Shown here: one piece after another, positions 31,260 to 36,154 of the stretch | Position numbering within the stretch: the stretch's first letter is position 1 | Layout of the letters: each line of letters begins with the position of its first letter | Source of the DNA: Klebsiella phage KpnP_VR7901 | Direction: 5' to 3' (one strand) | Sequence record: OM103162.1 | DNA: 48,366 bases | Position numbers and translations under genes: made by a program | Notes under the pieces: model-generated | Database searches by the model: none | Seen by the model: only the letters and a program-made list of their open reading frames with translations | What the model was told of the DNA's origin: nothing

Positions 31260-32066
31260 TTACCAATCCCCCAAATAAGCAAATTGTTGTACACGACGAA
31301 TGCTGTCGTAGACAGACAATTCATATTTCTCTTCCCAAGGGATGTCCTTAGCGTATTTACCAAGAATCATCTTGTAGAAACCTTCTGGCCGCAGGTCACT
31401 CACTGAATAGACAACAGCGGTTGGGTTGTCAATCTCACGCGCCAGTCCTTTCAGATGTTGCAACAGCCCGCACCACCATTCAATAGCCGCTAAATCCCCA
31501 TCAGAGCGCCACGCTCTAAACTCAAGGGAGCCATAGTCCCCCAGAGCTTTAACGTTCACAGAGGCATAGCGGAGGTCGTCAGTGTGCAGTACAGACAGGT
31601 TTTGCTCTTTAATTGCAACACCCAGCATGTCAATCAAATATTCAGCGTCACACGCTCTCAGGCAGAACAGGTTGCCAATACGATGCTGCCCGCAGGTGTT
31701 CACCAGAATGTCTTCCACCACCAGATATAGAGACAGGAAGTTGAACAACTGCGTCACTGTCAAATCCCCACAGTTGATGTGAACATGCACACCAGCATTA
31801 GGGCTGTCTTTAATAACAGCTTCATTGCTTTTCCAAGCTTCTTCCATTAACGCTAAGGCCATCTTCGTTTCATTAAATGGAATGGGCTTCCGCAATACAT
31901 ATTCAAAGCTCTCTCCGCGTAAAGAGGGGTCGTTCTCACTCTTCCACACACCGTCTTCTACACGAGGGAGGTTAGTCCCTTCTGCCTCAATCTCAATACC
32001 AATATGGTCGGTGAGACGGCTCTGGAGCTTCAACACATCACGCACTAATTTTCTTTCAAAGGACAT
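31260..32066 (-). CDS. carboxylate-amine ligase, GCS2/YbdK/PafA-like amidoligase (copy 1)
   Basis: GIEIEAEG (compare YbdK GIELEMQV), ESFEYVL, NAGVHVHINCGD (compare QHVHVGCASGD), GSLEFRAWRSD (compare GTVEVRVMD). Confidence 0.6.
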   Translation of the reverse strand: MSFERKLVRDVLKLQSRLTDHIGIEIEAEGTNLPRVEDGVWKSENDPSLRGESFEYVLRKPIPFNETKMALALMEEAWKSNEAVIKDSPNAGVHVHINCGDLTVTQLFNFLSLYLVVEDILVNTCGQHRIGNLFCLRACDAEYLIDMLGVAIKEQNLSVLHTDDLRYASVNVKALGDYGSLEFRAWRSDGDLAAIEWWCGLLQHLKGLAREIDNPTAVVYSVSDLRPEGFYKMILGKYAKDIPWEEKYELSVYDSIRRVQQFAYLGDW

Positions 32067-32887: not shown

Positions 32888-33087
32888 TATTTATTCTCCA
32901 AGCTGGGAATATAAACATCAAATTCACATTCCCTTTCATCAAAATTGCAAATACCGCCTTTCGGGAGGTCTACAGTAATCAGGTCCCCGGGAAGCACTTC
33001 GAAATACCCAGACATGGCTTCTTTGCACACCTCGCAATTGCCACATGTGGTTTTTATAAGCCTAACCTTATCTCCAACATTAATCAT
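32887..33087 (-). CDS. small Cys-rich protein MINVGDKVRL..., C-terminal -PSLENK
   Basis: 66 aa, CGNCEVC plus C..C (possible zinc ribbon). TTG GAG AAT AAA TAA TG junction. Confidence 0.55.
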   Translation of the reverse strand: MINVGDKVRLIKTTCGNCEVCKEAMSGYFEVLPGDLITVDLPKGGICNFDERECEFDVYIPSLENK

Positions 33088-33899
33088 AATACAATCCCCG
33101 CTGGGAGAAGCAGCCCCTCTTCCTTGATGATGCGGGAAGCAGATGCCTTATCCGAAGTGTTGACAATACGTTGAGCTTCATCCCCGTATTTATCGAACAG
33201 GGAAACGCCCCGCTCAATACGCTCCATAGCGTCCATAGATGCCTTGTATGCCCAACGCTTCAGGTTGTCATCCTTCAGCCACTGATTGGAGAGAGTTCGG
33301 TATTCCATGCCATATTTCTTAGGACGGAATGCACCAGCTTTGCCGTACAGCTCACGACGTTTAGTGTCACTGTCGTAGAACAGAGAAGGAAGGCCCAGAT
33401 AGAAGTCCAGCTCCCGCACTTTAGCCGCCAGCCAAGCAATATAATCTGCATCATTCACTGGAGCATCATTACCAGTTTCAGGCAAGCCGAAGTGTATATG
33501 ACCAGCAGCAGAGCGGAACGGGAGTTCCCCGTTAGGACGTGGGTTAACATCGACAGTGTATGCGTCATAATCAGGGTCACAGCCAAGCTCCTTAGCTTCT
33601 TCTGGTTGAGCACGAATGTATTCAAAGCCGAAGTCTGCTACCGGGATGCACTCCAGCTTGTAGTCCGGCACCATGCTTGCCAAGATTTCCATGACGCCGT
33701 TGATATTGTCCATCCACGCCTGCTCACTATCTGCCGCGTCGATGTTAAATTCAAGGGCCATGCCATCCACTTGGACAGCACCACGATTTACTTTGAGGGG
33801 GTCGTGTTTACTGCCTTTGATGAGGCCATGAGCACTCACCAGTTTACCGTTACGAGAAACAAAAATTTCCGGGTCAGCACCAATTAAGATTTTAGACAT
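33084..33899 (-). CDS. carboxylate-amine ligase, GCS2/PafA-like amidoligase (copy 2)
   Basis: IGADPEIFV, GMALEFNI, AGHIHFGLPE, GMEYRTLSNQW: the same four-motif pattern as copy 1 and YbdK. Confidence 0.55.
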   Translation of the reverse strand: MSKILIGADPEIFVSRNGKLVSAHGLIKGSKHDPLKVNRGAVQVDGMALEFNIDAADSEQAWMDNINGVMEILASMVPDYKLECIPVADFGFEYIRAQPEEAKELGCDPDYDAYTVDVNPRPNGELPFRSAAGHIHFGLPETGNDAPVNDADYIAWLAAKVRELDFYLGLPSLFYDSDTKRRELYGKAGAFRPKKYGMEYRTLSNQWLKDDNLKRWAYKASMDAMERIERGVSLFDKYGDEAQRIVNTSDKASASRIIKEEGLLLPAGIVL

Positions 33900-33926: not shown

Positions 33927-35231
33927 TTAATTTGATAAAGTTTTTACACGGCATCCGGGAAGGAGGCGGCTACGCTGTTCACTAGTTAGCCCCTTGATAT
34001 CTTCCCAACAGGTCTTACAACAAATGTGGGCATCAGGAGAGGTGTAATACTCCTTCACTAACGTGCGGCAATACGAGCAACCCACTTTATAATTGAACTT
34101 ATGAAACTTCACCCCCGCTGGGAGCTGTTCCTCCTTCTTGCTTTCAGCTAAGGCAGCCTCTTCTAAATCCTCTAGCGTATAATAACATTTATCCGCTGTA
34201 TAGATAGAGAGGTATAGCCCAGCCTGTCCTGAATAATTCACTTTAGCAGTGAACACCATTTTATCTTCTGCCCACATCTCAGTGACTAAATCGTCATGAA
34301 CATCCAGCCTTACTTGAGTGATGCGGATAGGAACATCTTTGAGAGTTTTACCGATGATGTCTACATAATTGGCACCGTTCTGTACAAAATCACGGATGGT
34401 GTCCACTGTAAACTCTACAAAGTCACCGGTGTTTACGCCCTCTCTGTCGAGCCATTTGTCTTCTTCTCCCCAGCTTCTGCTGTAATTTCCGTAATAGCTT
34501 CCCGACCACTTTGGGGCTACATACGGCTCAACCTTAGTGGTCGTCCAGTCCACAATGTCGGTTGCTTTTTCAGGGAGAGTAAATTTATAGTGCATATCAA
34601 TCTGCACTTCACGGGGGGGTTCATCAAGCTTTAAGTCTTGACGCCCACAGGCTGCATGAATCATCCAGAATTCAGAAGCCCACACCAGAGTGCGTCCTTT
34701 GTTAGCTGTGCTAAACCACAAAGGGCGCTCTTTATTACGCAGGAAGTTAACAGTGTTGTCTGTCTTATCAATCCACGTTAAGGCGGCTGCTCCGTTTAAC
34801 TTGCCCCACAGAGAAGCTACGCCATTCTGGTTAAGCTCAGAGAATGCAGCTTGGCTATCCACTGCGTATTTCTCTTGCTCGAACAGGGTGTATTGGGAAA
34901 GAAGACTGCCGTTGTGTGCCCCAATAATATTAGGGAATTCAAATGGATGGGCATTCTCCTGAATGATGGCCCCCTTAGTGGCCCAACGATTGTGACCAAT
35001 AAGGATGTGATGCTTCTTAGCCATCAAATCAGAGAAGCCTTTCAAGTCCATGAAATCAACAGCGTTAAGCTTGTCCTTAAACACAGCTGTCTTGAATTCA
35101 TTCCCAATCTTATGCAATGAAGCAATGCCAGTGGAATGCTTCCCACGGATAACATCTAACAAGAGAAGGTCTTTAAACACTTTCTCTTCTTTAAAGGAGA
35201 TGTCTCCTGCCAGTCCAACGAGTCCGCAAAT
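33927..35231 (-). CDS. class II (Ntn) glutamine amidotransferase domain protein with Cys-rich C-terminal domain
   Basis: CGLVGLAGDIS (compare GlmS MCGIVG), LIGHNRWATKGAIIQENAHPF (compare [21 protein letters not shown]), GAHNGSL (compare HNGIIEN). The catalytic Cys codon (35228..35226) lies upstream of the first canonical start (GTG 35180). The only in-frame candidate start is ATT 35231..35229, 7 nt after a GGAGGA RBS. Confidence 0.55.
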   Translation of the reverse strand: MCGLVGLAGDISFKEEKVFKDLLLLDVIRGKHSTGIASLHKIGNEFKTAVFKDKLNAVDFMDLKGFSDLMAKKHHILIGHNRWATKGAIIQENAHPFEFPNIIGAHNGSLLSQYTLFEQEKYAVDSQAAFSELNQNGVASLWGKLNGAAALTWIDKTDNTVNFLRNKERPLWFSTANKGRTLVWASEFWMIHAACGRQDLKLDEPPREVQIDMHYKFTLPEKATDIVDWTTTKVEPYVAPKWSGSYYGNYSRSWGEEDKWLDREGVNTGDFVEFTVDTIRDFVQNGANYVDIIGKTLKDVPIRITQVRLDVHDDLVTEMWAEDKMVFTAKVNYSGQAGLYLSIYTADKCYYTLEDLEEAALAESKKEEQLPAGVKFHKFNYKVGCSYCRTLVKEYYTSPDAHICCKTCWEDIKGLTSEQRSRLLPGCRVKTLSN

Positions 35232-35262
35232 AGTATTATCCTCCGAAAGCCTGTGGCTTTGC

Positions 35263-35517
35263 TTATTTATTTTCTAAAGACAGATTGAAGAATTCAAGGT
35301 CGTCCTCATGGAACCACCAACCCCAGTCTATACCAAATTCTGGAGCGTGTAGGTATACGCTGTTGTATCCGATTCTTTTAACTTCCATGGGAAATCCTGA
35401 CACAGCAGCGCTCATGTTTCTCCCTCCGTCGCCACATTTAATTACTGTGAGGGAGTCGTCCCACATATCCAGAGGTATAGTGCAATATACAATATCCCCC
35501 TCTTTAAACTTGGGCAT
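35263..35517 (-). CDS. small protein MPKFKEGDIVY..., C-terminal -LSLENK (TTA GAA AAT AAA TAA)
   Basis: 84-aa ORF. A GDxV/SH3-like paralogue. Confidence 0.55.
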   Translation of the reverse strand: MPKFKEGDIVYCTIPLDMWDDSLTVIKCGDGGRNMSAAVSGFPMEVKRIGYNSVYLHAPEFGIDWGWWFHEDDLEFFNLSLENK

Positions 35518-36154
35518 ACAGCTCCTCCAGTTTATCGAAATACCATTGCTGACACGGGTGGTCTGAACTTACAAATTCAGGATGGGGTTGATAACAGAAC
35601 GCTTTAGTAGATGGGTAGAAACAAGCCTCCACTTCCACATCTGTATCTACATCCACTACTTCCCCCGGCTCTTCATGTGCAGGGGTCATCATGAATTTAC
35701 GAGAGCTGCGCATAACACTGCTCTTGCCCAACAAAATCCCGCACTCCCCGACAATCATCATCTGGTGGTGGAGAGAGGACACCGGGACCAGCTTACCAGT
35801 CTCTACATCCAGCATGTCATGAGTGCCATGAATGCCATGCCCCTTAACATCCTGATACATGTTACCACCAGACAGGGCATTGAGGAGCTGCCCGCCACGA
35901 CATACACCAGCAAGGAACTTGCCCTTCTGCTTTCCTTCTACAAAGGCTGCATACTCTTCACGGTCACGGCCCGGAGAGGTGTAGGTGGTGGGGTGTTCAT
36001 GTTGATTGTAGAACTTGGGGGAAATATCAGCTCCCCCCGTGAATTGTACAATGTCGGCCTCGTCAATGCTGTCTACGATTGTATAACCGCGCTTAGTGTA
36101 CATTGAATGGAATTGATGGAAGAAGGAAGTGCCTACGATGAATACTTTTTTCAT
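35504..36154 (-). CDS. class I glutamine amidotransferase-like / peptidase C26 (gamma-glutamyl hydrolase-like)
   Basis: Nucleophile elbow GVCRGGQLLN and C-terminal YQPHPEF (the vQfHPE motif). Confidence 0.6.
   Translation of the reverse strand: MKKVFIVGTSFFHQFHSMYTKRGYTIVDSIDEADIVQFTGGADISPKFYNQHEHPTTYTSPGRDREEYAAFVEGKQKGKFLAGVCRGGQLLNALSGGNMYQDVKGHGIHGTHDMLDVETGKLVPVSSLHHQMMIVGECGILLGKSSVMRSSRKFMMTPAHEEPGEVVDVDTDVEVEACFYPSTKAFCYQPHPEFVSSDHPCQQWYFDKLEELYAQV

Follow-up and report, generated by a model that had tools for sequence, protein, structure and literature searches.

In the genome of Klebsiella phage KpnP_VR7901 (sequence record OM103162.1), the gene for a class II glutamine amidotransferase-like protein of the N-terminal nucleophile (Ntn) type is very likely, judging from its sequence and from its homologues, to be translated from an ATT codon at 35231..35229 on the minus strand rather than from the first canonical start in its frame, GTG 35180. 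The window, i.e., the whole stretch of 48,366 nucleotides that was analysed, comes from a Citrovirus-like Klebsiella phage (Zobellviridae). The ATT stands directly before the codon of the catalytic cysteine, and our comparison of 84 homologous loci supports the initiation at AUU that the original prediction had put forward as one of three options. The same comparison indicates that this weak codon is a selected and recurrent feature of phage Ntn amidotransferase genes. The gene and its start region are made up of the following elements.

33927..35231, minus strand: proposed full coding sequence (CDS) of the class II (Ntn) glutamine amidotransferase-like protein, 434 codons including the ATT, with the predicted mature protein starting at the Cys
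35263..35517, minus strand: small upstream open reading frame (ORF) of 84 amino acids in another frame, ending ...LENK, with its TAA at 35265..35263, 2 nt before the hairpin
35276..35274, minus strand: in-frame stop TAG that closes the amidotransferase frame 5′ of the ATT, from the sequence and its translation
35246..35260, minus strand: hairpin AAAGCC-ACA-GGCTTT with a 6-bp stem and a 3-nt loop, 1 nt before the Shine-Dalgarno (SD) sequence
35244..35239, minus strand: SD sequence GGAGGA, within a conserved GGAGGAT, 7 nt 5′ of the ATT
35231..35229, minus strand: ATT, the proposed near-cognate initiation codon, from the sequence and its translation; ATT, ATC, TTG or ATG at the homologous position in 84 loci
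35228..35226, minus strand: TGC, the catalytic Cys and Cys1 of the predicted mature enzyme, aligned with mature residue 1 of Escherichia coli PurF
35180..35178, minus strand: GTG, the first canonical in-frame start, from the ORF list; used as the start in the GenBank annotations of phages Klyazma and Asterion

A scan of the window sequence found no in-frame ATG, GTG or TTG between TAG 35276 and GTG 35180, and a mechanical list of ORFs therefore opens the gene at the GTG and gives it 417 amino acids. The scan bears out the earlier observation that the cysteine is encoded 5′ of any such codon, and the positions originally given for the TAG, the ATT and the GTG, together with the distance of 7 nt from the GGAGGA, were all correct on the minus strand. 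Between the TAG and the ATT lie 14 open codons (K I N K Q S H R L S E D N T); the TGC is followed by GGA CTC GTT GGA (G L V G), and the frame reads on to the GTG, so that the ATT through the codon preceding the GTG amount to 17 codons (ICGLVGLAGDISFKEEK). Translated from the TAG onward, the frame is a stop followed by KINKQSHRLSEDNT-I-CGLVGLAGDISFKEEK-VFKD..., in which the V of GTG 35180 is probably an internal Val codon. The spacer between the SD sequence and the ATT is TAATACT (35238..35232, 7 nt), and the duplex of the SD sequence with the 3′ end of 16S rRNA has an energy of -9.5 kcal/mol. No sigma-70 promoter was found near the initiation region. The window contains no tRNA gene, and recoding of the ATT by a phage tRNA was ruled out on this basis.

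Class II amidotransferases need their nucleophile Cys as residue 1, where its alpha-amino group is free, and the residue is essential to the family. E. coli PurF and GlmS start with Met-Cys, from which the Met is removed, while Bacillus subtilis PurF has an 11-residue propeptide. Read over 434 codons, the window protein is recognised by the Pfam profile GATase_6 with 47.3 bits and E = 2.6e-12, the cut-off being 27 bits. Query Cys2 is aligned with mature residue 1 of PurF chains from E. coli, and GlmS residues 69-112 align with the query such that R82 is GlmS R73 and N107-G108 is GlmS N98-G99. In an alignment of 85 homologues (A2), C2 and G3 are nearly invariant and D26, R29, G30, H80, N81, R82, N107, G108 and D125 are invariant; among these, R82, N107-G108 and D125 are the equivalents of GlmS R73, N98-G99 and D123, the glutamine-binding/oxyanion residues. 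The AlphaFold model has a mean predicted local distance difference test score of 90.6, with strand 1 (residues 3-9) opening directly after the Cys, and its best Foldseek match in the Protein Data Bank is the GlmS glutaminase domain (1xff; E = 6e-11, target-normalised template modelling score of 0.71), followed by PurF, ASNS and EgtC. According to the model, then, the protein has the alpha-beta-beta-alpha fold of the Ntn enzymes, and homologues of 434 amino acids such as P0001 begin MCGLVG. The protein shares with E. coli PurF and GlmS and with B. subtilis PurF the class II glutaminase fold, the catalytic residues and Cys1, but PurF and GlmS start at ATG and B. subtilis PurF uses a real propeptide, unlike the phage gene. 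The phage protein also lacks the phosphoribosyltransferase domain of PurF and the isomerase synthase domain of GlmS, and has in their place a C-terminal beta-rich CxxC...CxxC region. This C-terminal half (33927..34600) is confidently modelled, ends in CSYC...CKTC and has no Pfam match; from the model, the CxxC...CxxC region is probably a zinc ribbon.

The evidence that carries the ATT start is comparative. We took the DNA of the best 80 of 467 viral-contig homologues and read the codon aligned before the Cys: it was ATG in 41, ATT in 20, ATC in 10 and TTG in 9, and neither GTG, ATA, CTG nor any other codon stood there in these 80 loci. Across all 84 homologous loci the counts are 41 for ATG, 33 for ATT or ATC (together ATY) and 10 for TTG. 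Besides the viral contigs, ATT is found at this position in phages Asterion, FBPa8, phiEco32, SU10 and SU7, and ATC in Klyazma and O4. The alternation always takes place directly before the Cys, which confirms this position as the start. An ATG in orthologues, which the original prediction had taken as a sign against AUU initiation, does occur in some of them, but it does not serve as a refutation since the codon alternates among ATG, TTG, ATT and ATC. In 25 of the 30 viral ATY loci, the stretch from the preceding stop to the ATY is free of in-frame ATG, GTG and TTG codons; the other 5 have an in-frame GTG or TTG upstream. In some loci the frame opens so close to the ATY (1 codon before it in L037, 3 in L074 and 4 in L022, L055 and L064) that a propeptide or an upstream start is impossible there. 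By Fitch parsimony, a neighbour-joining tree built from the N-domains requires a minimum of 21 changes from ATY to canonical starts or back; this tree is crude but robust for the recent switches. Nearly identical proteins can have different starts, as in O4 (ATC) versus PA11 (TTG) and L048 (ATT) versus L040 (ATG). The lack of ATA, even though it is a transition product of ATG, argues against neutral decay of the start codon; a plausible reason for its avoidance is that ATA-TGY would create an out-of-frame AUG (AUAUG).

The same position can be recognised in the protein databases. Most of the 120 database homologues listed begin MCG[LI]VG, whereas 17 of those listed have short N-terminal extensions in which the residue before the Cys is Ile in 16 cases and Met in 1 (examples of the former being ..EDSTICG, ..EDNTICG and GEFIICG), and 10 further ones begin downstream of the Cys. 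These extended and shortened predictions are the signatures of gene callers facing a non-canonical start.

The nearest relatives show how the codon evolves. Over the gene, Klyazma (OP125547) matches the window at 95.5% and Asterion (PV891806) at 91.7%, and in both records the gene (orf057 and CDS0031, respectively) is annotated from the GTG, with 417 amino acids each and 17 codons late. Asterion has ATT-TGC and Klyazma has ATC-TGT, with both changes silent for Ile or start and for Cys. The conservation of ATT/ATC in these two phages indicates that the ATT is not a sequencing error and that the Cys codon evolves in the manner of coding sequence. At 97-98% protein identity, metagenomic relatives carry TTG-TGC here, within a different SD context (GGAGGTGTAAT-TTG in L003 and GAGAGGTTTAAT-TTG in L004), and L133 and L135 likewise have TTG-TGC at the identical position. 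Relatives with 80-85% identity have TTG, and one with 59% has ATG. Over the 18 codons after the start, L133 differs from the window by five synonymous and two conservative changes, and it carries GTA where the window has GTG 35180, which shows that this GTG is not a conserved start.

Close relatives can also have wholly different initiation regions before an almost identical coding sequence. The gap separating the amidotransferase gene from the small ORF before it is an insertion hot spot, with an HNH nuclease gene in Klyazma (L001:3576-4010) and about 180 nt in L003 (L003:2486-2669). In L051, a second hairpin-SD-ATC-TGT cassette (L051:1253-1291) opens a 70-codon ORF beginning ICGLVGV..., 217 nt 5′ of the true amidotransferase start, which is TTG in that contig (L051:1501); this extra cassette seems to stem from an insertion in which the initiation region and the first six codons were duplicated.

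Weak start codons in this family appear to be partly compensated by stronger SD sequences. The SD sequences of ATY loci pair with the 16S 3′ end at a mean duplex energy of -8.4 kcal/mol, those of TTG loci at -8.7 kcal/mol and those of ATG loci at -6.5 kcal/mol, and the differences from the ATG class (Mann-Whitney, p = 1.6e-4 for ATY and 1.5e-3 for TTG) were calculated with no account of kinship. Many ATY loci share one layout, GGAGGAT, six bases, ATY and TGY. The pattern GGAGGAT-N6-ATY-TGYGGNNTNNTNGG occurs at 24 loci in all viral contigs, with a fixed spacing between SD and ATY, compared to 2 loci for the same pattern with ATG.

The SD sequence is accompanied by a hairpin that recurs in the family with a 5- to 7-bp stem, a 3- to 5-nt loop, a 3′ end 1-2 nt 5′ of the SD and a phage-specific stem sequence. 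Six of the stems are given here.

Window: AAAGCC/GGCTTT
O4: AACCTC/GAGGTT
L050: GAGGTC/GACCTC
L060: GAACCT/AGGTTC
L025: GCCCT/AGGGC
L092: CCGGC/GCCGG

Counting hairpins of at least 5 bp with at least 2 G-C pairs, an SD-adjacent hairpin is present at 15 of 30 unique ATY loci versus 3 of 51 canonical ones (Fisher p = 7.5e-6, ignoring phylogenetic kinship). In nine same-register sequences, all 45 of 45 cells pair and 5 of 5 pairs have double changes, compared to 16-51% pairing in slid controls, but this alignment (A4) was picked for same-register hairpins and is hence biased. Unbiased support is given by the pattern matches, which were selected regardless of the hairpin: all 14 of the unique ones before long Ntn genes carry a G+C-containing hairpin, those before 8 AT-rich genes of 227 amino acids have a weak A-U stem at most, and the 2 ATG matches have none. 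In the Klebsiella clade, Asterion has the loop TGT in place of ACA, and a stem C-G becomes U.G in Klyazma, a change that is tolerated only in RNA of the amidotransferase strand since the other strand would have an A-C mismatch. A covariance model of the cassette matches the window at 35224..35263 only; its alignment (A5) handled variable loop lengths poorly and was excluded from the pair counts.

It is probable, on these comparative grounds, that the hairpin keeps the initiation region defined and accessible, or that it stabilises or regulates it. We think it doubtful, but worth considering, that the hairpin has nothing to do with translation and is instead a weak antisense (plus-strand) terminator, an element of mRNA processing or stability, or a hitch-hiker of recombination. 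Read on the plus strand, 35246..35260 is a stem followed by a T-rich tail with a terminator-like score, which could act against antisense transcription; the local folding is not significant, and close phages exchange entire initiation regions and not single bases. Against this, the 3′ end of the hairpin lies 1-2 nt from the SD even in very divergent phages, its pairing is preserved by compensatory changes that include the U.G of Klyazma, it is enriched with ATY starts and not with the TTG or ATG starts of the same gene, and stems of 5-6 bp are weak as terminators.

Combinations of this kind are rare outside the Ntn genes. We searched the window for near-cognate codons that have a strong SD and precede the first canonical start of a long ORF. 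Of the 14 matches, judged by eye on the gene map, only the amidotransferase ATT opens its own long ORF, the others being short ORFs or lying inside or antisense to genes; its arrangement is not due to chance, and there was no other credible ATY-start gene in the window. In 520 kb of related phage DNA, we looked for ATT or ATC codons that stand behind a strong SD, open an ORF of at least 150 codons and precede its first canonical start by 8 codons or more; there were 27 such sites, 24 of them at the Ntn Cys (including tandem ATY-ATY cases), while each of six control codons gave 0-3 sites. The cassette is also found 5′ of other GATase_6 proteins, of 227, 380, 409 and 507 amino acids. In bacteria, with one genome per species, there were 11 pattern matches, of which 2 were real Ntn genes, one probably of a phage and one glmS-like, and the trait is essentially viral.

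The alternatives to a start at the ATT differ in what they would mean for the protein. Starting at GTG 35180, which is the first canonical in-frame start and the one used by two GenBank records, the product would be a 417-amino-acid protein without the Cys and without CGLVGLAGDISFK, with an inactive or repurposed Ntn domain, and the 51 nt upstream would be untranslated. We consider this highly unlikely, since homologues of 30-98% identity conserve the in-frame protein sequence of these 17 upstream codons, with changes that are mostly synonymous, the GTG is GTA in L133 and has no good SD before it, all other catalytic residues of the family are kept, and the modelled Cys is placed where strand 1 begins, as it is in Ntn hydrolases. 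A minor internal isoform may be made from this GTG. We give still less credence to a longer precursor, produced from an upstream start, by a frameshift or by fusion with the upstream ORF, and autoprocessed to the Cys as in B. subtilis PurF. Ntn enzymes are capable of self-processing, and both the 14 open codons before the ATT and the 5 of 30 ATY loci with an in-frame GTG or TTG upstream would allow for it. However, the window, Klyazma and Asterion are without an upstream canonical start, the frame opens 1-4 codons before the ATY in L037, L074, L022, L055, L064, phiEco32 and SU7, the E-D of the supposed propeptide is the SD GGAGGAT read in frame with only the Ile codon constant, and the upstream neighbours vary among close relatives, which argues against a fusion. 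The propeptide that the original prediction had allowed for is thereby excluded as a general explanation, with 25 of the 30 ATY loci lacking an upstream start.

The least probable alternative is that the ATT arose through faulty sequencing or assembly, or that an ATG was recently mutated, which inactivated the gene and left a pseudogene. The ATT is one base from ATG and some close relatives have the canonical TTG, but many cultured phages and metagenomic contigs that were sequenced independently have the same ATT or ATC, and the simple ATG-to-ATT error that was initially considered is excluded by these independent genomes. In addition, purifying selection acts on the ORF, which is intact; ATA, expected to be the commonest neutral mutation, is never seen; the codon comes together with an SD and hairpin cassette of its own; and the SU10 protein has been detected (PMC4281155).

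Translation from the ATT has points that weigh against it as well. Reporter data would predict a low yield from AUU or AUC, and the SU10 peptides (PMC4281155) bear on the whole protein and not on its N terminus. ATT-TGC makes an out-of-frame UUG, 9 nt from the SD, that opens a 12-codon ORF and could compete with the AUU. The fold of the hairpin is not thermodynamically significant in its 71-nt context (minimum free energy z = +0.97), which means that the evidence for it is comparative and not energetic, and the kinship ignored in the hairpin and SD statistics and the selection of A4 belong here too. The restriction to Ntn genes is partly a matter of ascertainment, as the obligatory Cys1 makes ATY starts detectable. 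Separately, a +2 out-of-frame UUG or GUG ORF was considered as a mechanism in its own right and rejected, since such ORFs are short (median 8-12 codons) across all start-codon classes and give no class-specific signal.

Initiation at the ATT could proceed as follows. The strong SD GGAGGA(T), 7 nt 5′ of the AUU, would position the 30S subunit, and the initiator formylmethionine (fMet)-tRNA would read AUU as a near-cognate codon with two of three bases pairing. Deformylase and methionine aminopeptidase would then take off the fMet, and since Cys is a permitted second residue, its removal would expose Cys1 with a free alpha-amino group. An AUC-initiated protein has been found to have an N-terminal Met in E. 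coli, where AUU, AUC, AUA and CUG initiate at approximately 1-2% of the level of AUG (bioRxiv 10.1101/063800). Another reporter placed AUU 6-8 fold below AUG and found that 5′-flanking hairpins stimulate expression (PMC3592434), and non-AUG starts differ in their sensitivity to initiation factor 3 (IF3), temperature and ppGpp (PMC5499595). The weak codon probably keeps initiation low or conditional, and the reasons for this could be a low dosage of the glutaminase, a coupling to the initiation state of the host, or slow initiation that completes the removal of fMet. As a more tentative proposal, which we hold to be possible but not likely, the hairpin, strong SD, 6-7 nt and AUU/AUC would make up a dedicated mobile cassette of translational control, specifically selected before phage Ntn genes of at least four GATase_6 architectures, which could be coupled to the host initiation state (for instance IF3 availability, ppGpp or temperature) or slowed for full fMet removal and would not serve mere low expression. 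If true, bacteriophages would thereby have their first non-canonical initiation module that is structurally defined and extends across a whole family.

The best-known AUU starts are those of infC and pcnB, the only confirmed AUU-initiated genes of the E. coli chromosome (bioRxiv 10.1101/063800), and the AUU/AUC of infC is phylogenetically conserved (PMC5499595; bioRxiv 10.1101/063800). As would be the case in the window gene, the AUU there is read by the initiator tRNA and is an inefficient start under IF3 discrimination, and the analogy to infC drawn in the original prediction holds for the codon. It is not expected to extend to autoregulation, as the window gene product, unlike that of infC, is not a translation factor. 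In contrast to infC and pcnB, the phage codon alternates with ATG and TTG among relatives, is accompanied by a strong SD and a hairpin, and would expose a catalytic N-terminal residue.

Closer parallels are found among the phages themselves. By tblastn, 315 phage records of GenBank contain the family (121 of Pseudomonas, 93 of Escherichia, 22 of Vibrio and further ones). In the phiEco32-like phages, the initiation region consists of the hairpin AAGGG-TTTA-CCCTT, a c, AGGTGGAT, TAGAAA, ATT and TGT, with the TAG two codons upstream of the ATT, and recurs in 99 records of phiEco32-like phages of E. coli, with ≥95% identity in 97. The proteins phiEco32 gp83 (ABY52884.1) and SU10 gp85 are homologous Ntn amidotransferases from the same amidoligase/GATase cluster as in the window, with the same succession of hairpin, SD, 6-7 nt, ATT and TGY, but differ from the window protein in having approximately 35% N-domain identity, a length of about 676 amino acids, the SD AGGTGGAT instead of GGAGGAT, and another stem. 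The SU10 amidotransferase was detected by proteomics with 9 peptides, at the level of the whole protein (PMC4281155), which indicates that an ATT-start homologue is expressed.

In GenBank, the CDSs of phiEco32 (phi32_83) and SU10 (SU10_085) begin exactly at the ATT, and annotators thus recognised the ATT start of the family in 2008. The ATT start of this family is therefore already annotated, and the window gene adds a further case. The scale of the phenomenon (approximately one-third of homologues, with many independent switches), the compensating SD and the covarying SD-adjacent hairpin appear to be undescribed; our literature search, which did not reach the phiEco32 paper, found no paper on the ATT start or the hairpin of this family and nothing relevant on non-canonical starts in phages, and the Klyazma paper does not mention the gene. 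Other annotated starts are late, by 10 codons in the SU7 RefSeq record, 14 in FBPa8 and 37 in O4, and in most other records the start region is unannotated or the CDS starts late. As a consequence, the catalytic residue is missing from the deposited proteins of Klyazma, Asterion, O4, FBPa8 and SU7, and the start region is wholly unannotated in dozens of phiEco32-like records. Gene callers limited to ATG, GTG and TTG will keep truncating or wrongly extending members of this family, with 26 of the 120 listed homologues affected. Confirmed AUU/AUC starts are extremely rare in bacteria, with two in E. coli, while here they make up approximately one-third of one gene family, and as cultured E. coli, Klebsiella and Pseudomonas phages have them, they provide a genetically tractable natural system for studying near-cognate initiation and its selection.

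The amidotransferase gene belongs to a phiEco32-type amidoligase/GATase cluster, with the ligase, Amidoligase_2 and GATase genes located together with it. The assignments below are from Pfam.

35504..36154, minus strand: class I GATase/Peptidase_C26 gene of the same cluster
33084..33899, minus strand: phiEco32-like COOH-NH2 ligase type 2 gene (PF14395), directly downstream of the amidotransferase gene
31260..32066, minus strand: Amidoligase_2 gene (PF12224) of the same cluster

Klyazma and Asterion share this gene order, and both also annotate an ATP-grasp gene.

Some further sites came up during the scans. In L115, a contig of a Hyphomicrobiales metagenome-assembled genome (JAPLOW010000103, minus strand, ~2090-2119), a glmS-like ORF of 607 amino acids has AGGAGGAT-N6-ATT-TGC, with an in-frame canonical start 23 codons upstream of the ATT; this is possibly a bacterial glmS with an ATT start, or possibly an error in the assembled genome. 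In the AT-rich contigs that carry the 227-amino-acid ATT-start Ntn gene (L089, minus strand, ~2298; L098:1901; L107, minus strand, ~12716), a second ORF of 246 amino acids (IVFVNKRGHHLC...) has a strong SD (CTGGAGGAAGGTTT) and then an ATT 24 codons before its first canonical start, and it is possibly a further ATT-start gene. Finally, a gene-junction motif, TGGAGAAYAAATRA, is present in the window in 10 copies with at most 1 mismatch, compared to 0.05 expected, at the following positions.

15030, plus strand: copy of TGGAGAAYAAATRA
21944, 22144, 26612, 30116, 31059, 32067, 32887, 36155 and 39869, minus strand: copies of TGGAGAAYAAATRA

At these junctions, the upstream protein ends ..LENK and the motif provides an SD (GGAG), the stop and the adjacent or overlapping ATG of the next gene, and it looks like a junction for translational coupling or recombination. 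The ORF upstream of the amidotransferase gene ends in a degenerate copy of this motif, TTAGAAAATAAATAA, at 35277..35263.

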